In this document: piece after piece, positions 5,497 through 61,320 of the stretch
Layout: every line of letters starts with the position of its first letter
Numbering within the stretch: the first letter of the stretch is position 1
Assembly (NCBI GenBank): GCA_052389555.1
Contig: JBQTHV010000108.1
Location: forward strand, 35-64,034
From: Gemmatimonadales bacterium
GTDB taxonomy: Bacteria > Gemmatimonadota > Gemmatimonadetes > Gemmatimonadales > GWC2-71-9
DNA length: 64,000 bases
Direction: 5' to 3'
Position numbers and translations under genes: made by a program
The notes under the pieces: generated by a model
What the model saw: the letters and a program-made list of their open reading frames with translations, nothing else
Databases searched by the model: none
What the model was told of the DNA's origin: nothing

Positions 5497-5753
5497 GGGC
5501 GCCGATGGAAGTGCGGGTGACGTTGCTCGATACCTGGGAAGCGCACGTTTTCAACGTGCCGCCGACGATTCGGGTGAGCGAGCTCAAGCAGGAGGCACTG
5601 GCCCGCTCTCGGGTCCGCCGCTCCCCCGGGGAGTACGAGGTGAAGTACAACGGCGCTCGCCTCGATGACGAAGACCGCACCCTGGCAGATGCCGGAGTTC
5701 TCGACCACGCTGCCCTGATCGTCTTGCCGCTCCGGAGGAGACCCGCTCGTTGA
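5493..5753 (+). CDS. ubiquitin-like (beta-grasp) small protein, no C-terminal GG
   Basis: MEVRVTLL...FNVPPTIRVSELKQEA...NGARLDDEDRTLADAGVLDHAALIVLPLRRR aligns by eye along ubiquitin (LEVEPSDTIENVKAKI...[30 protein letters not shown]). Confidence 0.55.
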   Translation: MRAPMEVRVTLLDTWEAHVFNVPPTIRVSELKQEALARSRVRRSPGEYEVKYNGARLDDEDRTLADAGVLDHAALIVLPLRRRPAR

Positions 5754-5790
5754 CGGTTGACCGTTGACCGTTGACCGTTGACGGTTGCCG
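5749..5790. repeat. tandem heptamer array (GTTGACC/G) x6
   Basis: Read directly. Starts 2 nt before the TGA of the ubiquitin-like ORF. Confidence 0.95.
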
Positions 5791-6702
5791 CGGTTGCTCG
5801 CCGTGCCTTTGCCTGCCGTCTTTACCTCAGCCCGCTGTTTTGAGCATCGCCCCGGGCCGGCCCATCCGGAATCCCCGGAGCGGTTGCGCGCGGTGCAACG
5901 GGCCGTCCAGGCAGAGGACCCGGCGGCGCTCCGCGAGGCCGGCCCCGCGGAGCGGGAGGCGCTCGAGCGGATACACCCACGGGACTATCTCGATCGGCTG
6001 GAGCGGCTGGCCTCGAGCGGTGGCGCGATGCTGGATCCCGATACCTTCCTGAGCGCCGGGAGTTTCGAGGCTGCCCGTGCCGCCGCCGGGGCGCTGCTGG
6101 ACGCGGTCCGCCACGCGTTGGCCGGGGGTGGCAATGCGTTCGCCGCGGTGCGTCCTCCCGGTCACCACGCGCTCCGCGATACGCCGATGGGCTTCTGCTT
6201 CCTGGCCAACGTTGTCATTGCCGCGCGAGAGGCGCAGGCCCTGGGCCGGGAGCGAGTCCTGATCGTGGACTGGGATGTCCATCATGGCAACGGCACCCAG
6301 GCCTTGATGGAGCGGGACGCAACCATTCGCTTGGTCTCGCTCCATCAATGGCCTCACTATCCCGGCACCGGCGCCGCATCGGAGCGCGGGGTGGGGAACG
6401 TGTTCAACCTGCCCAGACCTCCGGGGCTTCCCGCCGAGCGATACGGGGACGACCTCCGGGGAGGGATCGCGAGTGCGCTCGAGGACTGGGCCCCGAAGCT
6501 GATCCTGATCTCAGCGGGTTATGACAGCATGCGGGGCGATCCTCTGGGCGGCTTTACCCTCGAGCCCCAGCACTACGCCGATCTGGTCTGGTGGCTCAGA
6601 GATCGCTGTGTCGGGGTGCCGATCGTGGGTGTCCTGGAAGGGGGGTACCGGCCGGAGCGGATCGCGGCAGGCGTGCTGGCGACCCTCCGCGCGCTGGTTT
6701 GA
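5785..6702 (+). CDS. histone deacetylase-family (arginase/deacetylase superfamily) protein
   Basis: RPPGHHA, DWDVHHGNGTQ and SAGYDSMRGDPLGG motifs. Start uncertain: TTG 5785 lies in the heptamer array and GTG 5803 is an alternative. Confidence 0.85.
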   Translation: MPRLLAVPLPAVFTSARCFEHRPGPAHPESPERLRAVQRAVQAEDPAALREAGPAEREALERIHPRDYLDRLERLASSGGAMLDPDTFLSAGSFEAARAAAGALLDAVRHALAGGGNAFAAVRPPGHHALRDTPMGFCFLANVVIAAREAQALGRERVLIVDWDVHHGNGTQALMERDATIRLVSLHQWPHYPGTGAASERGVGNVFNLPRPPGLPAERYGDDLRGGIASALEDWAPKLILISAGYDSMRGDPLGGFTLEPQHYADLVWWLRDRCVGVPIVGVLEGGYRPERIAAGVLATLRALV

Positions 6703-6742
6703 CGGATCAGCGCGGGCCGTCTATACTCGGCTCGCTACCAAT

Positions 6743-6777
6743 TATCAGCTATCAGCTATCAGCTATCAGCTATCAGG
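6743..6777. repeat. tandem heptamer array (TATCAGC) x5
   Basis: Read directly. Intergenic, 41 nt after the HDAC stop. CACTTTT x2 follows at about 6803-6816. Confidence 0.95.
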
Positions 6778-6830
6778 TAATCGCTGTTCGAGAACATATA
6801 TCGCCTTCACTTTTCACTTTTCCCGTTTCC

Positions 6831-7850: not shown

Positions 7851-10339
7851 TTCCCCGGTTTGCCAAGGTTGCTCTCCCGCTCCCTCTCTTCGAGCCCTAC
7901 CGCTATCGCATTCCCGAAAGCCTGGCCGACCGGATAGCTCCCGGTGCGCGCGTCGTGGTCCCGGTCCGGCGCCGCGAGCTCGTCGGGGTCGTCGTTGCCA
8001 CGGCAGGCGAACCGCCGGATCGCGAAGTCCGGGACATTCTGGGCGCCCCGGACCCGGAGCCCGCGCTTCCGGCGGCGCTGCTCCGGACCGCGGAGTGGAT
8101 GGCGGGATACTACGGCGCGCCGATTGGCATTGCGCTGAAGGCCATGCTGCCGCCGGGACTCTGGGGCGAGTCGAAGGTGCTGCTCAGGGCGGTCGGGCGG
8201 TCGGGCGGTCGGGCGGTCGGCGGGTTAGGTGGAGAGTTGCTCGAGTGGGTGGAGCGGCGAGGTGGAGAGGCGTCGCTCGCGACGGCCGCGCGCGCGCTCC
8301 GCAAGCCGCTCTGGGAGGCGGCGGATCGGCTGGTCCGCATCGGGGCGGCCGAGCTGGTCGTCGTCCCGGTCGCGACGGAACCGGCCGGGGCGATCGAACG
8401 CCGGCTGGAGCTGGTGGGCGAGCGGCTCACCCTGGTCGAGCGCAATGACCGGTTTGCGCGACGGGCCCGGCAGCGGGAGCTCTACGAGACGCTGGAGCGG
8501 CTGGGGGGATCGGCGCCAGTGACCCATCTCCGGGAGACGGTGGGGGTTGGCGACTCGGTGATCCGCTCCCTCACGGCCTCCGGCCTGGCGCGGCGGGTGT
8601 CGGTCGAGCGGGTTAGGGATCCTTTCGCCGGCGTCGAAGGCAGCCCGCCCCCGGCCGGCCTAACCCGCGAGCAGACGAGCGCCCTCGACCGCCTGCAGGC
8701 GCTGGAAGCGGGCGAGGGAGCCCTGCTCTTCGGGGTGACCGGGAGCGGCAAGACGCTGGTCTATCTCCGCGCGGTCGAGCGAATGGTCGAGGCCGGCCGG
8801 GGGGCGATCATCCTGGTGCCGGAGATCGGCCTCACGCCCCAAATGGTCAGCCGGGTGCGGGGGCTGTTCGGGAGCCGGGTTGCGGTGCTGCACAGCGGGC
8901 TTTCCGAAGGCGAGCGGGCGGACGCGTGGCGGCTGCTCCGCCGCGGCGAACGGATGGTGGCCGTGGGAGCCCGGTCCGCGGTCTTTGCGCCGCTCCAGAA
9001 CCTCGGCATCATCGTGCTCGACGAAGAGCACGAGACCAGCTACAAGAACGGCGAAGCCCCGCGCTACCACACCCGGGAGGTCGCCCTGGTTCGTGCGCGT
9101 ACGGAAGGCGCGTGTTACGTCCTGGGCAGCGCGACTCCCTCCCTCGAGACCAGGTCGCTCACTGACAGCCGAGTCCCGAGTGCCGAGCGACGAGTGCTGA
9201 GGGCCGACTCGCCGAGCCGCCGAGCCGCCGAGCCGTCCGGCAGTCTCGGGCTCCTCCGGCTGCCCCGCCGCATCGACGACCGGCCACTCCCTCCGGTCGA
9301 GCTGGTTGACCTGCGCTCGCAGCCCATGGTGCGGACCGGGCACGCCGTGCCCTGGTCCGAAGCGCTGGATCGGGCGCTGGATGGAGCCTTGGACCGGGGG
9401 GAGCAGACCATCCTCCTGCTCAACCGGCGGGGCTATTCGGCGTTTCTCCAGTGTCTGGAATGCGGGCTCGTCCCCGAGTGCCCGGACTGTTCCATCGCCC
9501 TTACTCTGCACCGGGTGCCGCCCGGGTTACGATGCCACTACTGCGGGCGGCGACTTCCGATTCCCGCCCAGTGTCCGGCCTGCGGCCACGCGGTTCAGCG
9601 CGCCCATGGCGTGGGTACCCAGCAGCTCGAGGAGCTGGTCGCGGCCCGCTTTCCGAAGGCGCGAGTGGCGCGGATGGACCTCGACACCACTTCGACCCGT
9701 TGGAGCCACGATCGGATCCTGGGGCGGATCGGGCGCGGCGAGGTCGATGTGCTGCTGGGCACTCAGATGATCGCCAAGGGGATGGACTTTCCCAACGTCA
9801 CCCTGGTCGGCGTGGTGGATGCCGATACCGCGCTGCACCTGCCCGATTTCCGGGCAGGCGAGCGCACGTTTCAGCTACTCGCCCAAGTGGCCGGGCGAGC
9901 CGGCCGGGGACCCAGGGGAGGAAAGGTGGTCGTCCAGACCCGTAACCCGGACCATCAGGCCCTGCAGTTCGCGGCAAAGCACGATACCGAAGGGTTCCTG
10001 GCCCGCGAGTTCGAGGCCCGCCGGGCGCCGCCGTACCCGCCCCACACCAACCTCGTCAACGTCATTGCGTCGGCCGAGCGGGAGGAAACCGCCGCTGCGG
10101 AAGCGCTGCGCGCCGCGGACTGGCTGGAGCAGTTGCGGGAACGGCACCAGCTTCCGATCACCGTGCTAGGACCGGCGCCCTGCCCGCTGACGCGGCTCAA
10201 AGGCCGCTGGCGCTGGCACCTGCTCCTCAAGGGCGACCGGGAACCCATCGGGCGGGTGGTGCGGTACGCGGCGCCCCGCCTGTCGGGGGGCCGGGGAACC
10301 CGTATCGTGCTGGATCGAGATCCGGTAAGCTTGCTATAA
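7847..10339 (+). CDS. priA: primosomal protein N' (replication restart helicase)
   Basis: MIPRFAKVALPLPLFEPYRYRIP N-terminus, Walker A GVTGSGKT, DEEH box, Cys-rich zinc region (CLECGLVPECPDC...CHYCG...CPACG). ATG 7847 overlaps the epimerase stop (ATGA). Track ORF start 7205 is an artefactual extension. Confidence 0.9.
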   Translation: MIPRFAKVALPLPLFEPYRYRIPESLADRIAPGARVVVPVRRRELVGVVVATAGEPPDREVRDILGAPDPEPALPAALLRTAEWMAGYYGAPIGIALKAMLPPGLWGESKVLLRAVGRSGGRAVGGLGGELLEWVERRGGEASLATAARALRKPLWEAADRLVRIGAAELVVVPVATEPAGAIERRLELVGERLTLVERNDRFARRARQRELYETLERLGGSAPVTHLRETVGVGDSVIRSLTASGLARRVSVERVRDPFAGVEGSPPPAGLTREQTSALDRLQALEAGEGALLFGVTGSGKTLVYLRAVERMVEAGRGAIILVPEIGLTPQMVSRVRGLFGSRVAVLHSGLSEGERADAWRLLRRGERMVAVGARSAVFAPLQNLGIIVLDEEHETSYKNGEAPRYHTREVALVRARTEGACYVLGSATPSLETRSLTDSRVPSAERRVLRADSPSRRAAEPSGSLGLLRLPRRIDDRPLPPVELVDLRSQPMVRTGHAVPWSEALDRALDGALDRGEQTILLLNRRGYSAFLQCLECGLVPECPDCSIALTLHRVPPGLRCHYCGRRLPIPAQCPACGHAVQRAHGVGTQQLEELVAARFPKARVARMDLDTTSTRWSHDRILGRIGRGEVDVLLGTQMIAKGMDFPNVTLVGVVDADTALHLPDFRAGERTFQLLAQVAGRAGRGPRGGKVVVQTRNPDHQALQFAAKHDTEGFLAREFEARRAPPYPPHTNLVNVIASAEREETAAAEALRAADWLEQLRERHQLPITVLGPAPCPLTRLKGRWRWHLLLKGDREPIGRVVRYAAPRLSGGRGTRIVLDRDPVSLL
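8187..8218. repeat. tandem octamer array (GGGCGGTC) x4 inside priA
   Basis: Read directly. Translated as RAVGRSGGRAVGG. Confidence 0.95.
9167..9236. repeat. GCCGAG-type heptamer/octamer array inside priA
   Basis: nnCCGAG units, then CCGCCGAG x3. Translated as RVPSAERRVLRADSPSRRAAEPS. Confidence 0.9.
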
Positions 10340-10350
10340 CGCAACGAGAA

Positions 10351-10385
10351 GGGCCGCGGGTTAGGCAAACATCGACCCACGGCCC
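10351..10385. terminator. bidirectional hairpin between convergent genes
   Basis: GGGCCGCGGGT (10351-10361) pairs with ACCCACGGCCC (10375-10385), 10 of 11 bp, 13-nt loop. It lies between the priA stop (10339) and the stop of the minus-strand gene (10412). No clear U-tract. Confidence 0.5.
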
Positions 10386-10411
10386 TCGTCTCCTGCGGGT
10401 TAGTGGCTCTC

Positions 10412-11074: not shown

Positions 11075-11199
11075 GGTGCCCTCCCAGGGTGGAAACCCGG
11101 CCGATCCGGGAAGGTTATCAAGCTATAGCGTGGGCTGGACCTGTAAAGAGCAAAGACCAAAGACCGGGGGGTGCGGGGCCGGGGGCCAGGGACCAGGGG

Positions 11200-11257
11200 T
11201 GCCGAGTGCCAAGCGCCGAGCCACCAAGCGCCGAGTGTCGAGCCCCGAGTATCGAGT
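11200..11257. repeat. GCCGAG-type heptamer array (about 8 units), intergenic
   Basis: TGCCGAG TGCCAAG CGCCGAG ... TATCGAG read directly, upstream of nadA. Confidence 0.9.
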
Positions 11258-13515: not shown

Positions 13516-13527
13516 CGGGGCGTCGGG

Positions 13528-16093: not shown

Positions 16094-16822
16094 ATGAGCG
16101 ACACCCCCAATCTGAGCATCTTCCTCGCGGTCCTCGGCGGATTGCTGAGCTTCTTGTCGCCATGCGTGCTGCCGCTGGTCCCTTCGTATCTCGGGTTCGT
16201 GACCGGATTCACCTTCGACGAAATGGCAAATCGGCGTCGAATCGCGATGGTTCACGCCGTTCTGTTCGTCTCCGGGTTCACGCTGGTCTTCATGTTGTTC
16301 GGGGCAAGTGCCACCGCGCTCGGCCGGTCCTTGAAGTACTACGAGGTCTGGATCCAGCGGATCGGCGGTGTGCTGATCATGCTATTCGGTCTCTATTGCC
16401 TCGGAGTTCTGCGGCTGTCGTTTCTGGATCGGGACGCGCGGCTGCATCTCGATCGCAAACCGGTTGGCTACCTTGGCTCGGTGCTGGTGGGCATGGCCTT
16501 CGCGGCGGGATGGACACCGTGCATCGGTCCCATCCTCGGAGGGATCCTGGGACTCGCGGCCACCCAGGAAAGCCTGTCCCGGGGCGTGGTTCTGCTCGGC
16601 GCCTATTCGTTCGGCCTCGCCATACCGTTTCTGGTAGCGGCCTATGCGGTCGAGGCGTTCCTCGACTGGTTCCAGCGATTCCGCCGCCACGTGCGCTGGA
16701 TCCAGCGCGTGAGCGGCGTTTTGCTCCTGTTGGTCGGGTTTCTGCTTGCGACCGGTCAGTTCACTCGGCTCGCGAGCTGGCTGCAGGCGCTGACCCCGGG
16801 GTTCCTGCGTAACTGGCTGTAG
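16094..16822 (+). CDS. ccdA: cytochrome c biogenesis/thiol-disulfide transporter CcdA (DsbD family)
   Basis: GGLLSFLSPCVLPLVPSYLG and GWTPCIGPILG motifs, multi-TM. Confidence 0.85.
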   Translation: MSDTPNLSIFLAVLGGLLSFLSPCVLPLVPSYLGFVTGFTFDEMANRRRIAMVHAVLFVSGFTLVFMLFGASATALGRSLKYYEVWIQRIGGVLIMLFGLYCLGVLRLSFLDRDARLHLDRKPVGYLGSVLVGMAFAAGWTPCIGPILGGILGLAATQESLSRGVVLLGAYSFGLAIPFLVAAYAVEAFLDWFQRFRRHVRWIQRVSGVLLLLVGFLLATGQFTRLASWLQALTPGFLRNWL

Positions 16823-16931
16823 GCTATTGGCTATTGGCTATTGGATGTCCCGTGAGCGGGTGGGAACCTCGGTTGCGGCTCGCGCCCGTGCATCGCCCTA
16901 TCCAATAGCCGATAGCCAATAGCCAATAGCC
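16822..16931. repeat. inverted heptamer arrays (GGCTATT x3 ... CCAATAG x4) forming a hairpin, possible terminator
   Basis: Left arm 16822-16844 starts in the ccdA stop codon. Right arm 16902-16931. Loop about 57 nt. Confidence 0.9.
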
Positions 16932-19548: not shown

Positions 19549-20490
19549 ATGGACTCCCCTTCCTCGCGGCAGCCGTCCCCTCCGCTTCGAGTCACCGAAC
19601 GCCGCAATCCGCGCACCGCCAATATCGACATCGCGACTCCGCTCGAGATCGTCGATCTGATCGCGCGGGAGGATGCCGGCGTGTCCGCGGCAGTCGCGAG
19701 CGCGCGGCTCGAGATCGCCCGTGCCATGGAGCTGATCGAGGCGTCGTTCCGGACGGGCGGCCGGCTGATCTACGTCGGTGCCGGTACCAGCGGACGGCTC
19801 GGCGTGCTCGACGCGGCGGAGTGCCCCCCGACGTTCGGTACGACGCCGGAGATGGTGGTCGGCATCATTGCCGGCGGGCGCGAGGCCCTAACCCGCTCGG
19901 TCGAAGGCGCGGAGGACGATGCCGCGGCCGGTGCCGCGGTGATGGATGAGCACGGGGTGGGCTCGTCGGATACCCTCGTGGGCATCGCGACCAGCGGGAC
20001 GACCCCGTATGTCCGCGCCGCGCTGCTCCAGGCCAGGGCCCGCGGGGCCCGGACCGTGTTCCTAACCTGCGTGGAGCCTCCCGAGGGCATCCGGGACGCC
20101 TGCGACGTCACCATCGCGGTGCTCACGGGCCCGGAAGTGGTGACCGGTTCGACTCGCATGAAGGCGGGCACGGCCACGAAGCTCGTGCTCAACACCCTCA
20201 CCACCGGTGCCCTGGTGCGGCTCGGCAAGACCTACGGCAACCTGATGGTGGACCTGCAGGCCTGGAATCAGAAGCTGACCGATCGCGGTGAGCGGATCGT
20301 GATGGCCGTGACCTCCGTGGATCGCGACGCCGCACGTGCGGCCATCGCCGCGGCGAGCGGATGGGTGCGTACCGCGATCGTGATGGTTCGGCGGGGCTGC
20401 TCGCGCGAGGAGGCCGAAGCGCTGCTCCAGGCCAACGACAACCATCTCCGCCCAATTCTGGGAGAACCGCCGCCTATCGGTCCGGAATGA
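19549..20490 (+). CDS. murQ: N-acetylmuramic acid 6-phosphate etherase
   Basis: ERRNPRTANID, GAGTSGRLGVLDAAECPPTFG, VEGAEDD and GSTRMKAGTATK motifs. ATG 19549 avoids overlap with the divergent ggt. Confidence 0.9.
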   Translation: MDSPSSRQPSPPLRVTERRNPRTANIDIATPLEIVDLIAREDAGVSAAVASARLEIARAMELIEASFRTGGRLIYVGAGTSGRLGVLDAAECPPTFGTTPEMVVGIIAGGREALTRSVEGAEDDAAAGAAVMDEHGVGSSDTLVGIATSGTTPYVRAALLQARARGARTVFLTCVEPPEGIRDACDVTIAVLTGPEVVTGSTRMKAGTATKLVLNTLTTGALVRLGKTYGNLMVDLQAWNQKLTDRGERIVMAVTSVDRDAARAAIAAASGWVRTAIVMVRRGCSREEAEALLQANDNHLRPILGEPPPIGPE

Positions 20491-21656
20491 CCAGCCGTCC
20501 TGCCTTCCCGCCGTCCTGCATGACCAGCGGTCCTGCCGTCCCACCGTCCAGCCGTCCGGCGACCGGGATCGGTCTCATGTCCGGCACCTCCCTCGACGGT
20601 ATGGACGCCGCGCTGGTGCGGTTCACCGGACCCACCCATGCCGAGCTGGTTGGTTTTGCCCACCGCCCCTATCACCCGGAGGAGCGGCGGGAGATCGAGG
20701 AGGCCATCGAGCGGCAGGTCGGCGGTGCGCGGCGCCTCGCGCATCTCCACGCGCGACTCGGCGAGTGGGCGGTGGAGGCCGTCGAGGAGGTCCTAACCCG
20801 CTCACGCTTCACCGCGCAGGGCCTCGACTTCATTGCCTTTCATGGCCAGACCGTGTGGCACGAGCCGCCGCTGGTCACGTTGCAGCTTGGCGAACCGGCC
20901 TGGCTGGCCGAACGGTTCGGCGTGCGGGTGGTGTCCGGGTTCCGGGGCCGGGACCTCGCGGCCGGAGGCGAAGGGGCCCCGCTCGTCCCCATGGCCGATG
21001 TGCTCCTGTTCGGCGCCGAGCAGGGTCCCCGGATTCTGCTCAACCTGGGCGGCATGGCAAACCTGACGTACGTGCTGCGCCGAGCGGTAGAGGACGGCGC
21101 GTTTGCCTTCGACACCGGGCCAGGGATGGCGGTGATCGATGGGGTCGCGCGGCTGGTTGACCCGTCGCTTCCATTCGATCTCGACGGGGCGCTCGCTCGC
21201 TCGGGTCATCCGGACGAAGCCGTGTTGGGGGAGTTGCTGGCCGACCCCTTCTTCGCTCAAGAGCCGCCCAAGAGCACCGGGCGGGAGCGGTTCGGCACCG
21301 CTTACGCGCAACGCCTTTATGGGCGTCTCGGCAGCAATGCGGTGGTGACAGCGGTGGAGCTGACTGCCCGGTCGATTGCCCACGCGCTCGAAGCGTGGAC
21401 TCCGGCCGGAGTGGAAGTCGTCGCGTCTGGCGGTGGCTGCCGGCATCCCATCCTCTGGAGCGCGCTCGCCGATCGGCTGTCGCGCCAGGGCCGGTCCCTT
21501 CGGCCGTTCGACCAGCTCTTCTTTCCCGGGGAAGCGAAGGAAGCAGTGGCGTTCGCCCTGCTTGGCTATCTCACCATTCACGGACAGCCCGGGAATCTCC
21601 CCGCCGCTACCGGCGCCCGAGGGCCTCGCGTGTTAGGAGTGATCACTCCTCCGTGA
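20487..21656 (+). CDS. anmK: anhydro-N-acetylmuramic acid kinase
   Basis: GLMSGTSLDGMDAALV signature. ATG 20487 overlaps the murQ stop (ATGA). The first ~25 codons are repeat-derived, and ATG 20576 is an alternative start. Confidence 0.88.
   Translation: MTSRPAFPPSCMTSGPAVPPSSRPATGIGLMSGTSLDGMDAALVRFTGPTHAELVGFAHRPYHPEERREIEEAIERQVGGARRLAHLHARLGEWAVEAVEEVLTRSRFTAQGLDFIAFHGQTVWHEPPLVTLQLGEPAWLAERFGVRVVSGFRGRDLAAGGEGAPLVPMADVLLFGAEQGPRILLNLGGMANLTYVLRRAVEDGAFAFDTGPGMAVIDGVARLVDPSLPFDLDGALARSGHPDEAVLGELLADPFFAQEPPKSTGRERFGTAYAQRLYGRLGSNAVVTAVELTARSIAHALEAWTPAGVEVVASGGGCRHPILWSALADRLSRQGRSLRPFDQLFFPGEAKEAVAFALLGYLTIHGQPGNLPAATGARGPRVLGVITPP
20490..20560. repeat. CCGTCC-type octamer-like array in anmK 5' region
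   Basis: CCAGCCGTCCTGCC...CCGTCCTGC...GGTCCTGCCGTCCCACCGTCCAGCCGTCC read directly. Confidence 0.8.
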
Positions 21657-23068: not shown

Positions 23069-24702
23069 CCGCGCTCGACTGGCTGGTCGTGGCCCTGTAT
23101 CTCGGGGTCACGCTCACGGTCGGCCTGCTCCTCGCCCGGCGAGGTGCGAAGAGCCTCGCCGAGTTCTTCGTCGGCGCGCGCTCGATTCCGTGGTGGCTGG
23201 CCGCCACCTCCATGGCGGCGACGACTTTCAACGTGGACACGCCGCTGTACGTGGCGGGTCGGGTGGCCCAGGCCGGCGTGGCCGGGAACTGGGAATGGTG
23301 GAGCTTCGCCTTCGCCCATGTGCTGCTCGCGGTCTTGCTGGCGAAGCTCTGGCGGCGGGCCGGCATCCTGACCGACATGGAGCTCACCCAGCTCCGGTAC
23401 GGGGGGCGGCCGGCCGCGGTGCTGCGCTCGGTCCGGGCCTTTCTCTTCGCAGTGCCGATCAACTGCATCGGGATCGGCTACGGGATGCTCGCGATGCGAA
23501 AGGTCATCGTCGGGCTCGACCTGCTGGGCGGACTTCCCGACCTGCCGGGCGATCCTCGCCTCTGGGCGCTGCTCCCGATCGTGGTGATCGTGCTGGCGTA
23601 CACGGCGGCGGCGGGTCTCTGGGGAGTCGTGGCCACCGATTTCGTCCAGTACCTGCTGGCCCTCGCCGGGGCGTTCACCGTCATGGGCTTTGCGCTCCAC
23701 GAGCTCGGCGGGTTAGGGTCGATGCTGGACCGCCTTCGAGCGACGGGGCAGGGCAACCGGCTGGCGCTGGTTCCGCTGGGGTCGGAGGCCCTCGTGCCAC
23801 TCTCGACGTTCCTCGGATATATCGGGATCCAGTGGTGGGCGTTCCGGAACAGCGACGGCGGCGGGATGTTCGTCCAGCGGCTCTCCGCTACGGCCAACGA
23901 GCGGGAAGCGCGCAAGGCGGCCCATGCATTCAACGTGCTCAATTACGTCGTGCGCACCTGGCCCTGGGTCCTGGTGGGCCTCGCCGCACTGGTGGTCTTG
24001 CCGGGTCTGGCCGATCCGGAGCTTGCCTATCCGCTGCTCATGGTGCGCTATCTCCCGGCGGGTTTGCTGGGACTGGTGTTCGCGAGCCTCCTCGCCGCAT
24101 TCATGTCCACGGTCTCGACTCAGGTGAACTGGGGCGCGAGTTACCTCGTCCATGACCTCTACGCGCGCTGGCGCCCGACCGGCGACGAGCGCAAGCTGCT
24201 TCGGGTCGCGCGTTGGGCGACGATCGGCATCACCCTGCTGGCTGCGATCGTGTCGTTCTTCATGGAAAGTGTGGGCACGGTCTTCCGGTTCCTGATACTG
24301 ATTGGGAACGGGCCGGGGCTCGTCCTGCTGCTGCGCTGGTTCTGGTGGCGGGTGAACGCCTGGGCCGAGATCTCGGCGATGCTCGCGGGATTGGGAATCG
24401 CGCTGCTCACCTACCTTCCGCCTCTGGCGCATCTGACCTTCGGGGCTCGCCTGATGCTCACCGGGTTCGGCTCGCTGGCGGTCTGGCTGCCGGTGATGCT
24501 GCTTACCCGGCCCGAGGCGCCCGCGGTCCTGGATCGGTTCTACGCGCGAGTGAGGCCCGGAGGCGCCTGGGGGCCGGTGCGCCAGCGGGTTAGGCTCGCT
24601 CCTCTCGACGACCTGGCCGCTGATGCCCGGCGCTGGCTCCTCTGGATGGTCGTGATTCTGGGCGGCATGCTGGGGATCGGGTGGATGCTCTTGGCTCAGT
24701 GA
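23065..24702 (+). CDS. sodium:solute symporter family transporter
   Basis: FFVGARSIPWWLAATSMAATTFNVDTP, about 13 TM segments. GTG 23065 overlaps the nagZ stop. Confidence 0.85.
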   Translation: MTALDWLVVALYLGVTLTVGLLLARRGAKSLAEFFVGARSIPWWLAATSMAATTFNVDTPLYVAGRVAQAGVAGNWEWWSFAFAHVLLAVLLAKLWRRAGILTDMELTQLRYGGRPAAVLRSVRAFLFAVPINCIGIGYGMLAMRKVIVGLDLLGGLPDLPGDPRLWALLPIVVIVLAYTAAAGLWGVVATDFVQYLLALAGAFTVMGFALHELGGLGSMLDRLRATGQGNRLALVPLGSEALVPLSTFLGYIGIQWWAFRNSDGGGMFVQRLSATANEREARKAAHAFNVLNYVVRTWPWVLVGLAALVVLPGLADPELAYPLLMVRYLPAGLLGLVFASLLAAFMSTVSTQVNWGASYLVHDLYARWRPTGDERKLLRVARWATIGITLLAAIVSFFMESVGTVFRFLILIGNGPGLVLLLRWFWWRVNAWAEISAMLAGLGIALLTYLPPLAHLTFGARLMLTGFGSLAVWLPVMLLTRPEAPAVLDRFYARVRPGGAWGPVRQRVRLAPLDDLAADARRWLLWMVVILGGMLGIGWMLLAQ

Positions 24703-24766
24703 GACGGGAGGACGGTAGGGCGGTAAGACGGTAAGACGGTAAGACGGTAAGACGGTAGGACGGTAG
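24703..24766. repeat. tandem octamer array (GACGGTAA/G) x8, left arm of inverted pair
   Basis: Units read directly, starting the base after the transporter TGA (24700-24702). Confidence 0.95.
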
Positions 24767-24784
24767 GATGAGGGTAGCGTTCGG

Positions 24785-25144
24785 CTACCCCTTTCTCGCC
24801 GCCGCTTCGTAGAGGCGCCAGAGCTGCTTGCCGGCTTCGTCTCGGTTGCGCTCGATCGTTTCCCACTCACCCCTAGCAAGAAACCCAAGATCGCGAGCTA
24901 CCAGGAGGACATAGCTCAACTCCGCAGTCGACCCAATCGCCATATCGAGGAATCGACGGAACTCCCGGGGTCCTCGCTTGGCGGCTCCTTCAGCGATGTT
25001 TGAGGCGATCGAAAAGGCTGCCCGCCGGGCTTGAGTGGTCAGCCCGTAGATCTCATGTCTAGGCCAAGTCCCGGTGGCCTGGTAGACTAGCAGAACGAGT
25101 TGGTGGGACGCCTTCCATGCTCGGAGCCGCTCATAGGGTGCCAT
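24785..25144 (-). CDS. four-helix-bundle protein (23S rRNA intervening-sequence protein / Avd-like family)
   Basis: MAPYERLRAWKASHQLVLLVYQAT...EIYGLTTQARRAAFSIASNIAEGAAKRGPREFRRFLDMAIGSTAELSYVLLVARDLGFL matches the family signature (QLRRAa.SI..NIAEG..r....e..rFl.iA.GS..El...l). Confidence 0.85.
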   Translation of the reverse strand: MAPYERLRAWKASHQLVLLVYQATGTWPRHEIYGLTTQARRAAFSIASNIAEGAAKRGPREFRRFLDMAIGSTAELSYVLLVARDLGFLARGEWETIERNRDEAGKQLWRLYEAAARKG

Positions 25145-25276
25145 GGTCCTAGCCTAGGAAGCCCGGGGGAATAACAACAACCATTTCTACCCTGGATAGG
25201 ATCTTTCCTACGCCAATCGACGATCTGGCCCAAACGCCCCCCAACCGCCCCAGCGTCTCATCCGGCGGGGCACTTT

Positions 25277-25337
25277 CCCTCTTACCCTCTTACCCTCTTA
25301 CCGTCTTACCGTCTTACCGTCTTACCGTCCTACCGCC
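25277..25337. repeat. tandem octamer array (CCCTCTTA x3, CCGTCTTA x3, CCGTCCTA), right arm
   Basis: Reverse complement of the left arm. About 33 nt are near-perfectly complementary (CTTACCGTCTTACCGTCTTACCGTCCTACCGCC versus the reverse complement of 24719-24750). Contains the phosphatase stop codon (25330-25332). Confidence 0.95.
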
Positions 25338-27537: not shown

Positions 27538-29535
27538 ATGCAACGGAGCGCGTGGATCGCCGCGGTTCTCCTCGCCGGGTGCGCCCGTCCGCCCGGGCCG
27601 GAAGTCATTGCCCCACAACCCGAGCGTCCCGCCCTCGACATCCCTGGGGAAACCACGGCTCCAGGCCGGCTACCCCCCGTGCCGGAGTCCCGGGGCCCGC
27701 TCCGCATTCGGGTGGTGTATCCGGATTCCCTCGCCCGGGTGGATATCCGGGATTCCAGTTTCATCTTCGGCTCGGTGGGCGATGGTACCGCCATCCTCAC
27801 CATCAACGGCCAGTCGGTGCCAGTCGCGGCGAACGGGGCGTGGCTTGCCTGGCTGCCTTTTGCCGGTGACAGTGTGATCAGCTTTGCGATCGCGGCCCGG
27901 ACCGCAACCGACTCGGCAACACTCTTATATCGGGTGCGCCGCTCTTCCCGGTTCACTCCGGCGCCAGGGCAAGCGCTCTGGATCGACACGACCAGCTTCT
28001 CGCCGCGAGGACGGGTATGGTGGCCTCGGGATGAATTCCTACCGTTGTCGGTGCGCGCCAGCGAGGACGCGAATCTACGGCTCGCGCTCCCGAGCGGCAC
28101 CGTGATCACTCTGTCGGCAGACTCGGTGGCCGAGGATGTCGCTGAGGGTATTCGGGCCTTCGACCGCGAGGTCGCGAATCTCGCGCGTCCGGTCCGGGCG
28201 GACCGCTATCGTACCATGCTGCGCGGCATAACGCTCGGCGACGCGGGGCCGCTCTTCGATACCATCCTGCCGTCCGGCCGCCCTGCCGTCCTGCCACCAA
28301 CGGGGCCGCCGAGCCGCCGAGCCGTCCAGCCGTCCAGCCGTCCAGCCCTCGAGCTTCTTGCCATCAGAGGACGTGACACCGTCCGTGCCGTCTGGCCCCT
28401 GACCCTCGCGCTTCTCGACTCCACTCCGATCGCGGTGACGCTCAACGACGATCGCGAACGCCGCGGCGGCACCGATCGGCTCACGATGGGAAGAACCACG
28501 CCGGGCGGCACCTATACCTGGTTCTTTCCAACCGGGACTCGCGGCCGCGTGTCAGGGCGGATCAACGGTGACCTCCGCCTCGCTCTCTCCCGGCGGAGCG
28601 ACGCCTGGGTCTCCGCTGCCGAAGCTCTGCCGAGCCCCGGACCAACGACCGCGGTGGTTGGTTCAATCACCCTGACGCCAAACCCGGACCGGGTGATCGC
28701 GCGGATACCGGTTGGGGTACGCCTGCCGTTTCAGGTCCACGAGGAGGAACGCGCGCTCACGATCGTGTTGTATGGGGCGCGCTCCGACGTGAATTGGCTT
28801 CGGTACGGGCCGGCTGATCCACTGGTGCGATTGGCTATCACCCGGCAAACGAGTGCCGACGAGTTGGAGCTTCGTTTCGACCTCAGCACCCCGGTCTGGG
28901 GATACCGGACTGAGTGGGACGGCACCGACCTGCTGTTTGCGATCCGAAGGCCGCCGCGCCTGGACCGGAGCAATGTGCTGGCCGGCATGACGGTCGTGGT
29001 CGATCCGGGGCACCCGCCAATCGGTGCCACCGGGCCGACCGGGCTTACCGAGGCCGAGGCCAATCTCGCGATCGCGCAGGTCCTGGTCGGGCTGTTGGCG
29101 CGGGAGGGGGCTCACCCGATCCTAACCCGCACCGACATGCGCCCGCTCGACCTCTGGCCGCGGGTCCGCCTGGCCGACAGCCTCAACGCCCAGCTCCTGG
29201 TCTCCATCCACAACAATGCGCTGCCCGACGGCATCAATCCGTTCACCAACAACGGGCCGAGTGTGTTCTACCACCACCCTCGCGCGTTACCGCTGGCCCG
29301 GGCCATTCAGTCCCGATTCGTCGGGCGCTTCGGGCTGCGCGATCTCGGCGTGGGACGGGCGGATCTCGCGCTCGCGCGTCCCACCTGGATGCCAGCCGTG
29401 CTGACCGAAGGTCTGTTCCTGATGATTCCGGAGCAGGAGGCTGCCCTGGCCCAGTCCGAGGGGCAACGCCTTTATGCGCTTGCCGTGCTCGAGGGAATTC
29501 GCCAGTTCCTCGAGCAGGTGCGGGATGCCCGATGA
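27538..29535 (+). CDS. N-acetylmuramoyl-L-alanine amidase (Amidase_3) lipoprotein
   Basis: MQRSAWIAAVLLAGC lipobox. C-terminal VVDPGHPPIGATGPTGLTEAEANL...SIHNNA...GLFLMIPEQE. Confidence 0.85.
   Translation: MQRSAWIAAVLLAGCARPPGPEVIAPQPERPALDIPGETTAPGRLPPVPESRGPLRIRVVYPDSLARVDIRDSSFIFGSVGDGTAILTINGQSVPVAANGAWLAWLPFAGDSVISFAIAARTATDSATLLYRVRRSSRFTPAPGQALWIDTTSFSPRGRVWWPRDEFLPLSVRASEDANLRLALPSGTVITLSADSVAEDVAEGIRAFDREVANLARPVRADRYRTMLRGITLGDAGPLFDTILPSGRPAVLPPTGPPSRRAVQPSSRPALELLAIRGRDTVRAVWPLTLALLDSTPIAVTLNDDRERRGGTDRLTMGRTTPGGTYTWFFPTGTRGRVSGRINGDLRLALSRRSDAWVSAAEALPSPGPTTAVVGSITLTPNPDRVIARIPVGVRLPFQVHEEERALTIVLYGARSDVNWLRYGPADPLVRLAITRQTSADELELRFDLSTPVWGYRTEWDGTDLLFAIRRPPRLDRSNVLAGMTVVVDPGHPPIGATGPTGLTEAEANLAIAQVLVGLLAREGAHPILTRTDMRPLDLWPRVRLADSLNAQLLVSIHNNALPDGINPFTNNGPSVFYHHPRALPLARAIQSRFVGRFGLRDLGVGRADLALARPTWMPAVLTEGLFLMIPEQEAALAQSEGQRLYALAVLEGIRQFLEQVRDAR
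28268..28347. repeat. composite CCGTCC / CCGCCGAG / CCGTCCAG x3 array inside amidase gene
   Basis: Read directly. Translated as RPAVLPPTGPPSRRAVQPSSRPA. Confidence 0.9.
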
Positions 29536-31796: not shown

Positions 31797-31982
31797 TCAG
31801 ATTTGTGATGTGCACGACTGATTTTCGCGTCGTTCCTTGAAATCCGGAGCGGATTGTCACAGCCCCGTCACGATCCTAATTTGAGCTTCCCCAACGCCCC
31901 GCGGGAGCGAGCCCGCGCCGAGCCGCGGGATGAGCCGCCCAGCTTCGTCATTACATTTCAGACCCGGATAAGAGGAAGACCC

Positions 31983-34508: not shown

Positions 34509-34510
34509 TG

Positions 34511-34633
34511 AGGAGGTAGTAAGTAGGAGGTAGTAAGAAGGGACAAACCTGACCGAGGCATGGTCGTTGCAGCGGGCGGTGCTGTTCCCTACTCACTACC
34601 TCCTGCTTACTATCTCCTTCTGTCCTTTCCTAC
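34511..34633. repeat. hairpin element, arms built from GGAGGTAGTAAGTA-type 14-mers (family copy 1)
   Basis: Left arm 34511-34547 starts 3 nt after the nrdJ stop. Right arm 34585-34633. About 26 of 30 complementary positions by eye. Confidence 0.9.
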
Positions 34634-49176: not shown

Positions 49177-49302
49177 AGGAGGTAGTAAGTAGGAGGTAGT
49201 GAGCAGGAGGTAGTGAGAAGGGACAAAACTTGCCGTGGCAAGAAACACGCACCGGCAGGGTTTGTCCTTCTCACTACCTCCTGCTCGCTACCTCCTCCTA
49301 CC
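49177..49302. repeat. hairpin element, same family (copy 2), between convergent wzz-like and wza-like genes
   Basis: Left arm AGGAGGTAGTAAGTAGGAGGTAGTGAGCAGGAGGTAGTGAGAAGGGACAAA (49177-49227). Right arm TTTGTCCTTCTCACTACCTCCTGCTCGCTACCTCC... (49261-49302). The loop holds a small hairpin CTTGCC-gt-GGCAAG. Confidence 0.93.
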
Positions 49303-57263: not shown

Positions 57264-57341
57264 TTGGCTGTAAGGTAGACTCTCCCGATTCCCCACACGC
57301 GGCGATATCTTCAGCCGCTCTCCACCAAGGAAGCGGCTGGT

Positions 57342-57614
57342 ATGTCCGAGGAAAAACTCAAGCCCATCGCACCGGCTCGCATCGCTGCTGAGCTGCGCAA
57401 GCTTTCCGAAGGCCGCCAGAGCGGCCAGTATGATGCGGATGAGTACGAGCACCGGTTCGCCCGGATGATCAGTGAGCTCCGGGACCGCAGGATCGAAGGG
57501 AACCGTGCCGAGATCATGGCCGCCCTGACTCCGCTCCGGCAAGATGGCACGCTGGACCCCGTGGCCTGGGAGCGGTTAACCCGCTCGTTGGGATTGGGGC
57601 AGGGTGGACTATAG
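57342..57614 (+). CDS. hypothetical small protein (SHOCT-like motif)
   Basis: 90-aa ORF. GQYDADEYEHRFARMISEL resembles SHOCT. Confidence 0.5.
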   Translation: MSEEKLKPIAPARIAAELRKLSEGRQSGQYDADEYEHRFARMISELRDRRIEGNRAEIMAALTPLRQDGTLDPVAWERLTRSLGLGQGGL

Positions 57615-57615
57615 G

Positions 57616-57651
57616 GTGAACCGGACGAACCGGGCGCCCGGGGCGAACCGG
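57616..57651. repeat. tandem nonamer array (GCGAACCGG-like) x4, reverse orientation of CCGGTTCGC
   Basis: GTGAACCGG ACGAACCGG GCGCCCGGG GCGAACCGG, starting 2 nt after the stop at 57612-57614. Confidence 0.9.
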
Positions 57652-57713
57652 TAGGAGACAGGCAAGCGGCCCCCGCCTCGCTTGTCCCGATCGCCTCGTA
57701 CGCCCTGATCGCC

Positions 57714-58589: not shown

Positions 58590-58701
58590 GCGGGAAGACG
58601 GAAAGACGGTCAGACAGTCAGAGGTTATCCGCCGAGGCTCGACGAACGTAGCCCTTCCACCTGTCCGTCTGTCCGCCTGTCCGTCTGTCCGTCTGACCGT
58701 C
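58589..58701. repeat. inverted octamer arrays (GAAGACGG-like ... CTGTCCGT x5) forming a hairpin
   Basis: Left arm 58589-58624 starts in the AKR stop codon. Right arm 58660-58701. Upstream of ispG. Confidence 0.88.
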
Positions 58702-58722
58702 AAACCACCTTACTTTTCCGGC

Positions 58723-59937
58723 ATGGCTCTCACCTCCCGCCGCCCCACCCCGACCGTCTGGATTGGACCCGTCCCGGTCGGCTCGTGCCATCCGATCGTG
58801 GTCCAGTCCATGACCAATACCGATACCGCCGACGTGGCGGCGACGGTGGCTCAGGTTCGGGCCCTCGCCGAAGCGGGGAGCGAACTGGTTCGGGTGACCG
58901 TCAACAATGCGGAAGCGGCCCAGGCCGTGCCGGAGATCGTCGCTCGCCTGGAGCGTGAGGGATGCCGGGTGCCCGTCGTCGGAGACTTCCACTACAACGG
59001 CCACCTCTTGCTCACCCGCTATCCTGAGTGCGCCGCGGCACTGGCGAAGTACCGCATTAACCCGGGGAATGTCGGCACCAAACGGCGGGACGAGAACTTC
59101 CGCGCGATCGTGGATGTGGCGGCCCGGAACCACAAGCCGGTGCGGATCGGAGTCAACTGGGGCTCGCTCGACCAGGATCTCCTGACCGAGCTCATGGATC
59201 GCAATGCCGGGCTCCCCGAGCCGGATGATGCGCGGACCGTTACCATCGAGGCGATGGTCGAGAGCGCCCTCCGCTCGGCCCGTCTCGCCGAGGAAAGCGG
59301 GTTGTCGCACGACCGGATCGTGCTCTCGGCCAAAGTCTCCGGAGTACCCGACCTCCTCCAGGTGTATCGCGAGCTCGCGGCCCGCTGCGACCATCCGCTC
59401 CACCTGGGTCTTACCGAGGCGGGTATGGGGATGAAGGGGGCGGTCGCCAGCGCAGCCGCGCTCGCCGTGCTCCTCGAAGAGGGAATCGGCGACACGATCC
59501 GGGTCTCGCTCACCCCTGCTCCCGGCGGCGACCGGACCGAAGAAGTGCGGGTGGCCCAGCAGATCCTGCAATCGCTGGGGCTCCGGAGCTTCGCGCCCCA
59601 GGTCACCAGTTGTCCCGGTTGCGGCCGCACCACCAGCACGTTTTTTCAGCAGATGGCTCAGGACATTCAGAGCTATGTGCAGTCGCGCATGAGCGAGTGG
59701 AAGGCCTCGCGACCTGGCGTGGAAACGCTGCGCGTCGCGGTGATGGGCTGCGTGGTAAACGGACCGGGGGAATCCAAGCACGCCGACATCGGGATTTCCC
59801 TGCCCGGCACGTTCGAGGAGCCCAAGGCCCCCGTATATATGGACGGGCGCCTGCACGCGACGCTCAAGGGCGATACCATCGTCGCTGACTTCCTCGCCAT
59901 TCTCGACGACTACGTCGCCCGCCGGTTTCCGGGTTGA
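58723..59937 (+). CDS. ispG: 4-hydroxy-3-methylbut-2-en-1-yl diphosphate synthase
   Basis: [43 protein letters not shown]. Confidence 0.92.
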
Positions 59938-60635
59938 TCCAGGCCGCGAGCTCCCAGCTTCTCGCCAGTCCGCTCGAGGCGCTCCCGGTCCTCTTCGGAG
60001 CGGGTCTGGTCACCAGCCTCAATCCCTGCATCTATCCGATGATTCCGATCACCATCGGGATTCTGGGCGGCGCCGGGGCGGCAACCCGAAGCCGCCGGAA
60101 GACGATTGGGTACACTCTGCTGTATGCGCTCGGGCTCGCCCTGGTCTATGCTGTGCTGGGCCTGGTCGCCGGCCTCACCGGGACCCTCTTCGGCTCAGTC
60201 AGCTCCAACCGGTGGGCCTACCTCTTCATGGCGAACCTGCTCCTGCTTGCCGGTCTCGCCATGCTCGACGTCTTTCCTGTTACCATGCCGAAGCGGATCG
60301 TGGCCTGGGCGAGCCGGTTCGGCAGCCGGTCGGCGGGATCCGTGTTTCTGATGGGGGCGACCTCCGGGCTGGTGGCCGCACCCTGTGGCGCGCCGGCGTT
60401 TGCCGCGGTGCTCACTTTTGTGGGTCAGACCCGGAGTGCCGGGTTAGGGTTCCTGTACCTCCTGGTCTTTTCGCTGGGGATGACGACGCTGCTCATTGGG
60501 GTGGGCCTATCCGCGGGCACCCTCGCCGCGCTGCCCAAGCCGGGCCGGTGGATGGCCTGGGTGAAGAAAGTCGCCGGCGTGGTTATTCTGGGGATGGCGG
60601 AGTATTACCTCATTCAGGCGGGAAAAGTATGGTGA
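59934..60635 (+). CDS. ccdA: CcdA/DsbD-family thiol-disulfide transporter (second copy)
   Basis: [18 protein letters not shown] and VAAPCGAP motifs. TTG 59934 overlaps the ispG stop. Confidence 0.82.
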
Positions 60636-61249
60636 ACTGGACGGCTGGACGGCTAGGCGGCTGGACGGCTGGAAACCCGGTTGGCGCGGAGTGCCGAGTC
60701 GCCGGGCCGCCGAGCGGTCCAGCCGTCCAGCCGTCCAGCCGACGAACTCTCCGGTTCGTCCGGTTCGTCCTGTTCGCCCTGCTCGCCCGGTGCCCCCCGG
60801 TTTCCGCGCAGCTCGAAGCCGGCATTGCGGTGGGCGCGACCGCTCCCGCGGTCATCATCAACGATCTGGATGGTCGCCCCGTCGACCTCGGCGGCGTGTT
60901 AGGAAAGAAGCCCGTGCTTCTCGAGTTCTGGGCGACCTGGTGCTCGCTGTGCAAGGCGCTCCTCCATCAGCTCGATGCGGTGCATGAGGCCTATGGAGAT
61001 CGCCTCGCGATGTTCGGGGTGAATGTCACCGTCAACGAGTCGAAGGCCCGGATCCGGCGTTATCTCGAGGAACACCGCCCCCCGTTCCAGGTGCTCTATG
61101 ACGAGAAAGGGGCTGGGGTGCGCGCCTATGACGTTCCCTCCACTTCGTTCATCGTGGTCATCGACTCGGCCGGCAAGGTCGTCTATACCGGCTCCGGGGA
61201 AAAGCAGGATCTGCTGTCGGCCGTGGGGCGGGCCTTCCCCAAGCCATGA
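60629..61249 (+). CDS. TlpA-like thioredoxin-fold thiol:disulfide oxidoreductase
   Basis: KPVLLEFWATWCSLCK (CxxC). ATG 60629 overlaps the ccdA end. The N-terminal ~55 aa are repeat-encoded and end in a signal-like RFVRFVLFALLARCPPVSAQ. Confidence 0.82.
   Translation: MVNWTAGRLGGWTAGNPVGAECRVAGPPSGPAVQPSSRRTLRFVRFVLFALLARCPPVSAQLEAGIAVGATAPAVIINDLDGRPVDLGGVLGKKPVLLEFWATWCSLCKALLHQLDAVHEAYGDRLAMFGVNVTVNESKARIRRYLEEHRPPFQVLYDEKGAGVRAYDVPSTSFIVVIDSAGKVVYTGSGEKQDLLSAVGRAFPKP
60637..60786. repeat. composite element: CTGGACGG x4, GCCGAG loop, CCAGCCGT x3 (inverted), then nonamer CCGGTTCGT x4
   Basis: Arms 60637-60672 and 60717-60741, nonamers 60751-60786. All lie inside the 5' part of the tlpA-like CDS. 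Confidence 0.92.
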
Positions 61250-61276
61250 CCGGGCGGCCAAAGCCAGGCCGGGCCA

Positions 61277-61320
61277 GGCCGAGTGCCGAGCGGTCGAGTG
61301 CTGAGCAGCCGAGCGCCGAG
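61277..61320. repeat. GCCGAG-type heptamer array, intergenic
   Basis: GGCCGAG TGCCGAG CGGTCGAG TGCTGAG CAGCCGAG CGCCGAG, 28 nt after the tlpA-like stop. Confidence 0.9.

Follow-up and report, generated by a model that had tools for sequence, protein, structure and literature searches.

Dispersed arrays of short tandem units close to the 3' ends of bacterial genes have been described for Xanthomonas, in which GGGAATC heptamers occupy about 190 loci, mostly with four units each, and form 70–75 convergent pairs (Rehm et al. 2015, PMC4692102). The G-rich strand of these repeats is the coding strand, they are located very near to the stop codon or overlap it, fewer of them are found between divergent genes, and no function was found (PMC4692102). 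The repeats are kept between the same genes in two species with varying sequence and length, and in the supplement of the study one GGGAATC array is listed as overlapping the beginning of XCC0516, which encodes the PF05635 protein with the PDB entry 2GSC (PMC4692102). Here, arrays of this kind are analysed in a 64-kb stretch of a metagenome-assembled genome (MAG) of a Gemmatimonadales bacterium from soil (contig C108, positions 35–64034; referred to as the window) and in the remainder of that genome. Probably, a single class of dispersed hairpin elements that arise by insertion accounts for them, the arrays being element ends or leftovers of elements; such elements would carry repeat arms, resemble the intervening sequences (IVSs) of 23S rRNA and settle at gene 3' ends.

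The GGGAATC arrays of Xanthomonas and the GGGGA(C/T)T arrays of Nostoc share with those reported here the dispersed short units, the stop proximity, the G-rich coding strand, the convergent pairs and the four-unit mode. Stop-proximal heptamer arrays are therefore not new to high-G+C diderm bacteria, for which a first-pass annotation of the window was aware of no such description. In contrast to both systems, the arrays described below are approximately tenfold denser, and their units, of 7, 8, 9 and 14 nt, belong to more than 20 families, most of which are unable to form G-quadruplexes; their abutment is resolved to 0–5 nt, and in-frame coding insertions occur. Furthermore, the link to cassettes with a PF05635 gene is demonstrated here, whereas the Xanthomonas table shows a single adjacency, XCC0516.

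In Coxiella burnetii, the IVS forms a stem-loop that carries an S23p open reading frame (ORF) and whose terminal stem measures 28 bp (Warrier et al. 2016, PMC4990558). It contains tandem heptamers of strain-variable copy number, is cut out by RNase III and may represent an old mobile element (PMC4990558). As in the 23S rRNA IVSs of Leptospira and Coxiella, the PF05635/S23p gene of the cassettes reported here is located in the loop of a ~430–600-nt stem-loop, and the tandem heptamers with copy-number variation of the IVSs have their counterpart in terminal inverted repeats with tandem units. Contrary to the IVSs, the cassettes follow the stops of protein genes instead of being inserted into 23S helices, their arms consist of nothing but tandem units, they are accompanied by hundreds of derivatives without the gene, and searches of 21 genomes of the order detected no RNase III. 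The ORF-bearing rRNA IVSs are nevertheless a closer analogue than the cyanobacterial repeats which had initially been named as the closest one.

These cyanobacterial short tandemly repeated repetitive (STRR) heptamers (Mazel 1990; Elhai 2008) form several families per genome, are intergenic and transcribed, and contain small conserved hairpin cores embedded in the heptamer arrays. The embedded cores resemble a 28-nt core within the GGCTATT elements of the present genome, which belongs to a different phylum and has a different base composition. To our knowledge, neither a stop-codon rule nor a fixed pair polarity has been described for STRR repeats.

Repetitive extragenic palindromes (REPs) are found mainly downstream of ORFs, where their GTAG termini often supply the TAG stop, but also inside genes, and CGTC REPs occur without a known transposase (Di Nocera et al., PMC3733652). 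REPs and REPINs (PMC3116915, PMC3733652) thus share with the elements reported here the dispersed hairpins 3' of ORFs in co-directional or convergent arrangement, the stop-overlapping termini and the intragenic copies, and the REPtron, a gene flanked by its own repeat family, parallels the PF05635 cassettes. In contrast to REPs, the elements lack a Y1/HUH transposase, possess arms of short tandem units instead of a unique 20–40-bp palindrome, and carry a gene for a four-helix bundle. Both the heptamer repeats (STRR and Xanthomonas GGGAATC) and the S23p rRNA IVSs have remained without explanation for decades.

Genome-wide occurrence and anatomy of the arrays

The 3.2-Mb MAG consists of 202 contigs with 67% G+C and is 93% complete. 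Its proteins are about 70–80% identical to those of same-genus relatives, and the IspG encoded in the window shares 72–78% identity with proteins of Gemmatimonadales MAGs. Tandem arrays were called with Tandem Repeats Finder (TRF), their boundaries being fuzzy by a few nt, and genes were predicted with a purpose-built codon-bias caller trained on long ORFs with high G+C at third codon positions, which yielded 2,893 genes at 90% coding. Relatives were represented by sampled loci, e.g. by 8–20-kb samples in several congeners.

TRF recovered all arrays listed by the first-pass annotation and found about 40 arrays of period 7, 8, 9, 14 or 16 within the 64 kb of the window, where at least 20 had been counted before. 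Throughout the genome there are about 1,100 strong arrays, 742 of period 7, 281 of period 8 and 66 of period 9. That few unit families are common to many loci also holds genome-wide: among 137 units few are dominant, and the leading families occupy tens to more than 100 loci each (GGCTATT 149 arrays, GAGAGGT 110, GCCGAGC 98, AGCCGCCG 65, AGGGGCC 52 and AGCTATC 37). To our present sampling this is the densest example found. Besides the gene 3' ends treated below, arrays occupy divergent spacers and 5' ends and also lie in frame within genes; the G+C-rich octamer and heptamer families lie mostly within ORFs.

In total, 152 inverted array pairs were found, and similar pairs exist in other Gemmatimonadales. 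The order of the two arms is invariant in the three largest paired families, namely GGCTATT...AATAGCC in 60/60, GTGAGAG...CTCTCAC in 30/30 and AGCTATC...GATAGCT in 14/14 pairs, and in 129 of the 152 pairs G exceeds C in the 5' arm. Arms have a median length of 31 nt, usually corresponding to four units, and 84 of 157 GGCTATT arrays contain exactly four. GGCTATT elements keep the phase (GGCTATT)4GG - core - CC(AATAGCC)4 with two types of core, a 57-nt class and a conserved 28-nt core, AAACTGCCCTAACCCGGAGGGCTGTTGA, which includes CCTAACCCGG and is found e.g. on contigs C25, C57 and C161, with no such copy in the window. A tie between the orientation of the 28-nt core and that of the genes was considered and discarded, as both orientations are found; likewise, no loops shared between families were found.

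The Xanthomonas and Nostoc GGGNATC heptamers have been proposed to be regulatory simple sequence repeats that form G-quadruplexes, and location, polarity, convergent pairs and four-unit preference of the present arrays equal those reported for these two genera. However, GGG runs are missing from the main units GGCTATT, GTGAGAG, AGCTATC and GTGAAAA and are present in minor families such as AGGGGCC. As units without GGG still favour four copies, the preference is not explicable by G-quadruplex formation, and this explanation is highly improbable for the arrays reported here. Both the four-unit preference and the stop-codon rule are independent of G-quadruplex potential in this genome.

The stop-codon rule

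The 523 stop-facing flanks of array islands show a median gap of 4 nt to the stop codon. The gap is ≤5 nt for 55% of these flanks; placing each island uniformly within its spacer would give 33%, and among start-facing flanks the share is 18%. Because spacers are short, the test was confined to co-directional spacers with ≥100 nt free, in which 41 of 112 arrays (37%) are located ≤5 nt from the stop, whereas 2.9% are expected (binomial P = 8e-34). The difference from random placement which the initial annotation had anticipated is thereby quantified against a proper null. An array is present between -25 and +5 of the stop in 367 of 2,601 genes (14%), and convergent spacers are occupied most often (51%). 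A partner within 200 nt exists for 176 of the 367 stop-abutting arrays, and among the solo arrays that abut a stop, 86 of 102 have the orientation of a 5' arm (16 the opposite one).

The type of stop codon follows the unit. TAG accounts for 54% of stops at GGCTATT, 67% at AGGGGCC and 91% at AGCGAGT arrays (background 29%), TGA for 73% at GAGAGGT and 82% at GTGAAAA arrays (background 58%), which indicates that the first unit often provides the stop or has it in common with the gene. Compared with reciprocal-best orthologues of the congener G017, the C-terminal offset is 0 in 18/42 and ≤3 amino acids in 31/42 proteins, and array-free genes behave similarly. Since the C-termini agree with those of orthologues, the stops are native and the rule does not result from spurious ORFs.

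A stop-codon rule could also emerge without any targeting, if arrays arise or land anywhere in non-coding DNA and the pattern reflects short spacers, spared ribosome-binding sites and promoters, and ORFs ending at stop-containing units. Array-free spacers are indeed tiny (median 7–12 nt), the uniform-placement null already puts a third of the flanks within 5 nt as given above, and GTGAGAG, GTGAAAA and AGCGAGT contain stops in all three frames, and ORFs do run a few codons into them. Against this, the focus on the stop persists in the spacers with ≥100 nt free, GGCTATT is stop-free in all sense frames and yet shows a median gap of 0, the C-termini agree with the orthologues, and cassettes in other families of the order are biased alike (19/27 flanks). 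Placement without targeting is therefore quite unlikely, and the result for long spacers speaks against passive selection as the sole cause of the stop focus.

No target-site duplication and no flank consensus were found at the arrays. A TA or other target motif was considered; the flank logos show only a mild A/T enrichment, which is due to the stops themselves. Neither are the GTGAGAG arrays a cassette of stop codon and Shine-Dalgarno sequence, the median distance to the next start being 68 nt with 8/60 arrays within 15 nt. The elements do not combine terminal inverted repeats with a target-site duplication and a parent insertion sequence (IS), by which one recognises miniature inverted-repeat transposable elements, and no IS with such ends was seen.

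Comparison with congeners

Array density varies about tenfold within the genus, from ~34 per 100 kb in the present genome to 24 in G005, 7 in G017, 4–9 in G015 and G011, and 0 in several of the 8–20-kb samples. GGCTATT arrays are found in 4 of 61 related genomes. The stop rule (≤5 nt) also applies in congeners, with 7/11 arrays on a 1.7-Mb contig of G017 and 5/6 in G005.

A GGCTATT hairpin element is located at 16814..16931 (strand not assigned, folding free energy dG -78 kcal/mol). Its (GGCTATT)n arm starts at the G of the TAG stop 16820-16822 of the CcdA gene and is followed by a 57-nt core and the (AATAGCC)n arm at 16902-16931. Twelve congeners share the ...WL* stop of CcdA but continue with unrelated downstream sequence and no array, so the element represents an insertion exactly at a conserved stop. 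It was recovered in an independent Logan assembly as well (a single contig of the same strain). For microhomology seeding this site is suggestive, as the native sequence TGGCTGTAG can be compared with the unit TGGCTAT, but the family-wide flank profile is weak, and this idea was discarded.

Of 42 orthologous gene ends in G017, 4 carry an array. Taken together, the sequence comparison with congeners shows that the arrays behave as lineage-specific insertions by which the C-terminus of the host protein is kept, in agreement with the proposal of the first-pass annotation that insertions are targeted to gene ends. At several gene ends, arrays with different units are found across species, namely at 24702, 34508, 60635 and 6702 and at two junctions on other contigs. 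The RNR gene, for example, ends in a GTGAGAG-type pair in G005, while unique long hairpins abut its stop in the array-free congeners G004 and G002, and G005 has a GGCTATT pair at the same stop as 60633-60635.

These observations bear on the alternative that the arrays are host-selected 3' elements, i.e. the Rho-independent terminators or 3'-end stabilisers of the lineage, held near stops by selection, with repeat arms that ease building and repair of the stems. The occupation of the same gene ends by different units across species and the unique long hairpins at the RNR stop are in line with such a function, as are the strong folding of the paired forms (-52 to -86 kcal/mol), the preferred occupation of convergent spacers (51%), the sense-specific orientation and the finding that Xanthomonas transcripts start or stop at repeats above control rate (PMC4692102). 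Also in line with it, hairpin plus U-tract terminators do not exceed the shuffle level in the window (7 vs 8.2 and 8 vs 9.0 expected), where the first-pass annotation had likewise found none evident. The window hairpins have no T-run and were consequently not assigned to the intrinsic terminator class. On the other hand, array density is lower in congeners (0–24 vs ~34 per 100 kb), among which numbers reduced 4- to 10-fold or a complete lack over 20 kb were observed, 38 of the 42 orthologous gene ends in G017 do without an array, 52% of stop-abutting arrays are unpartnered and the solo arrays are unstructured. Arrays further occur in divergent spacers and at 5' ends, in frame in PriA and elsewhere in coding sequence, and on both sides of a gene that looks selfish. 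In array-poor congeners ordinary 3' hairpins begin at a median of ~20 nt past the stop, so a terminator need not abut it; any tendency of such hairpins to abut stops is weak, and the measure is noisy in G+C-rich DNA. Some sites may plausibly use paired forms as a 3' barrier or terminator. As a general explanation this role is contradicted by the array-poor congeners, the solo arrays and the coding insertions, and the suggestion that these are the terminators of the lineage is on the whole unlikely.

Outside the order, MAG loci of Acidobacteriota near ispG (L030-L032, L038, L039, L063 and L074) harbor heptamer or octamer arrays in their spacers, each with its own unit and some as inverted pairs.

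Gene-bearing cassettes

The arrays listed from 24703 and 25337 enclose, as a pair, a PF05635 gene that the first-pass annotation had missed and that links the arrays to the ORF-bearing rRNA IVSs. The cassette spans 24702..25335 (strand not assigned), its two arms belonging to one unit family and lying 504 nt apart. The 5' arm (AGACGGTA)8 at 24702-24768 abuts the stop TGA 24700-24702, the 3' arm (TCTTACCG)7 at 25273-25335 overlaps the minus-strand stop TAG 25330-25332, and the minus-strand ORF 24785-25144 in between, which the codon-bias caller had passed over, encodes a PF05635/TIGR02436 four-helix-bundle protein. It matches PF05635 (23S rRNA intervening-sequence protein) with E = 3e-29 and, besides TIGR02436, PDB entry 2GSC (Xanthomonas XCC0516) with E = 3e-23. 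A sister PF05635 copy gives a weak match to the Avd model of diversity-generating retroelements.

Six PF05635 genes are present in the genome, located between protein genes and not in a 23S rRNA helix. Four of the six are bracketed by inverted arrays of the same family, compared with 13 of 2,893 genes overall, and the units of the four copies all differ (GGCTAT[GT], AGCTATC, TAGTGGT and AGACGGTA); the two remaining genes have an array on one side. In all six copies an arm lies ≤10 nt from the stop of the neighbouring gene.

For comparison, 20 PF05635 loci were sampled in nine relatives, which represent three families of the order. Inverted repeats bracket 18 of the 20 loci with arms 416–550 nt apart, most of these loci have arms built of 7- or 8-mer arrays, the 5' arm is the G-rich one in 17/18, and 19 of 27 stop-facing flanks are located ≤5 nt from a stop. 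The gene-bearing cassettes hence follow the polarity and stop rules of the gene-less forms across three families of the order.

Gene-less arrays and cassettes are further tied to each other by matching units within the same genomes. The commonest dispersed units of G017, ACGGGCGG, ACCGGCGG and ACAGGCGG, are the arm units of its own cassette L164, and a CAGGTGG pair of G005 agrees with its own cassette L180. In the present genome the GGCTATT and AGCTATC families have one gene-bearing copy each.

Proposed mechanism and candidate enzymes

In the reading we favour, the full form of the element would be a ~600-nt cassette in which four to eight usually G-rich 7- or 8-mers are followed by a loop with the PF05635 gene and, on the 3' side, by the complementary units as second arm. 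In the common form, the two arms would enclose only a short loop, and solo arrays would be half elements or decay products. New copies could arise by copying from existing arrays, no transposase being recognised here, with slippage adjusting the number of units afterwards, and either insertion or survival would be centred on the stop codon. Transcripts of paired forms would then carry stems of -50 to -86 kcal/mol at the very start of the 3' untranslated region. Such stems can presumably block 3' exonucleases or RNA polymerase; some sites may rely on this effect, but it would be incidental and not the reason for the element.

Several observations weigh against this reading. No movement of elements was seen, nor any target-site duplication or flank consensus as stated above. 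Except for GGCTATT, no loop similarity was detected (16 of 117 loops of ≥20 nt cluster, all of them GGCTATT), and loops that are unique to their locus argue against simple copy-paste of whole elements. The large families GAGAGGT, GCCGAGC, AGCCGCCG and AGGGGCC have no gene-bearing copy in the 93%-complete assembly, and the PF05635 copy number (0–13) does not correlate with array density. Different-unit arrays at shared gene ends would also fit a conserved function at those sites. As to enzymes, for which the first-pass annotation had proposed a REP-associated tyrosine transposase (RAYT) or a reverse transcriptase among other candidates, RAYT (Y1/HUH, PF01797) is absent here and in 27 of the 31 genomes searched (this one and 30 relatives) with positive controls, and the sole reverse transcriptase of the genome is of the group-II-intron type with a maturase tail (C10:855-2174, on a 2.9-kb contig). 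For the four-helix bundle itself we know of no catalytic activity. Finally, it is a caveat that the stops rest on our own codon-bias gene calls and the array ends on TRF boundaries that are fuzzy by a few nt.

A more far-reaching possibility, which we regard as doubtful but worth stating, is that PF05635 proteins and short-unit arrays form one self-propagating system, comparable to REPIN-RAYT but without an HUH enzyme, in which the pentameric protein recognises its own 7- or 8-nt unit and promotes templated copying. The unit might be copied to DNA ends, or to single-stranded DNA that becomes accessible at the very point where translation terminates and the transcript is no longer covered. Arms with a mode of four to five units would suit a pentameric protein, and such copying would yield fixed-polarity pairs, solo arrays and the stop-codon rule. 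If this were true, the arrays of Xanthomonas, cyanobacteria (STRR), Acidobacteriota and Gemmatimonadota as well as the rRNA IVSs would share a single mechanism of origin.

RNase III was not found in the present genome with PF14622, PF00636 and TIGR02191, nor in 20 relatives of the order with PF00636 and TIGR02191, several of which are 100% complete, while eight or nine bacterial genomes used as controls were positive. From these sequence searches, the lineage may lack a canonical RNase III. If so, long perfect stems would be spared the cutting by which IVSs are removed elsewhere, and this may have allowed the arrays to expand.

The hairpin elements proposed above turn an oddity into something testable, by asking whether the protein binds the arms, whether the arms mark RNA 3' ends, and whether filled and empty sites exist between strains. 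For annotation, it is relevant that in this genome repeats have given rise to ~14% of gene ends, to several signal peptides and to loops in core enzymes. No literature on such repeats in Gemmatimonadota was found.

Individual elements of the window

The stops at 5753, 16822, 24702, 25330 (minus strand), 34508, 49172, 49298 (minus strand), 58589 and 60635, on which the rule had first been noticed, are all supported by the gene calls, and further stop-abutting arrays follow the stops ending at 20490 and 29535. At least five inverted pairs, five having been proposed, fold at -52 to -86 kcal/mol with z-scores of -4 to -12; solo arrays show no structure (z ~0). No Rfam family matched in the window.

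Four hairpins besides those at 16814 and 24702 are located at gene ends, all without assigned strand. The 14-mer (AGGAGGTAGTAAGT) hairpin at 34510..34619 (dG -68 kcal/mol) begins 2 nt past the RNR stop 34506-34508. A further 14-mer hairpin at 49177..49296 (dG -86 kcal/mol) fills a convergent spacer, 4 nt after the stop 49170-49172 and 1 nt before the minus-strand stop 49298-49300. The (AGACGGNC)/(CTGTCCGT) hairpin at 58591..58701 (dG -52 kcal/mol) is located 1 nt past the stop 58587-58589, upstream of ispG. The (CTGGACGG)/(AGCCGTCC) hairpin within 60637..60791 (dG -83 kcal/mol) likewise starts 1 nt past its stop, 60633-60635, and is followed by a (TCCGGTTCG) nonamer array that codes for the signal-peptide core of the following gene.

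Among the other arrays of the plus strand, the (CGTTGAC/CGGTTGAC) x5.7 array at 5748..5787 contains the TGA 5751-5753 of gene 5505-5753 within its first unit. The CCGTCCTG-type arrays at 20480..20557 fill the spacer after the stop 20488-20490, which measures 29 nt in congeners. Within 29541..29665, the (AGGACGGC) x4.6 array begins 5 nt after the stop 29533-29535 and is followed by (CCCGGTTCG) x5, which codes for the RF(A/T)RF... N-terminus of the following gene. For the (GGGCGAACC) x4.2 array at 57614..57651, a TAG is present at 57612-57614 as the first-pass annotation had it (array start given as 57616), but it ends only a putative 90-amino-acid ORF, 57342-57614, without a match in Pfam and NCBIfam. 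This plus-strand ORF has a protein-like composition and lies beneath the over-extended 5' end of the minus-strand ORF 55764-57542.

The looser cases named by the first-pass annotation stand as well. The (TATCAGC) x4.9 solo array at 6743..6776 (plus strand) lies 40 nt past the stop 6700-6702, and a (GGTCAAC)n array is found at a comparable place in the congener G010. (GCCGAGY) x6 and (CCGCCTGA) x3 at 61278..61353 (plus strand) are located 28 nt past the stop 61247-61249. The composite island of AAAGACC, GGGGCCA and GCCGAGY arrays at 11145..11256 (strand not assigned; listed as 11200) is found in a divergent spacer and has no stop association.

Many other arrays lie within ORFs. In PriA, GCCGAG-type arrays at 9169..9235 (plus strand) create an in-frame insertion of 24 amino acids that three orthologues do not have, whereas a second array at 8187..8220 leaves the length of PriA unchanged. 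Octamer arrays at 28265..28354 cause an in-frame insertion of ~18 amino acids in the plus-strand gene 27679-29535, a peptidoglycan-amidase-like protein whose congener counterparts miss the insertion; smaller arrays akin to these are located within ORFs at 25483-25536 and 31113-31136.

Arrays of the nonamer CCGGTTCG code for the hydrophobic core of two signal peptides, those of two exported proteins. The nonamer arrays (CCGGTTCGC) at 29620-29665 and 60750-60791 translate to RF(A/V)RF...LFA, and orthologues have unrelated signal-peptide sequence at these places. A (TCCCCAC/TCCCCAG) x7 array at 16040-16089 makes up the C-terminal tail (PHSPLPTPRSPVTNPD) of ORF 15678-16091; its unit resembles CCCCAGT, the STRR1 unit of cyanobacteria.

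In the leader of the RNR gene (31797-31982) a motif GTGACAGATTTGTGATGTGAA...CGTATTGTCC without a match in Rfam is conserved upstream of the RNR gene in five congeners, and this spacer motif may be a regulatory site.

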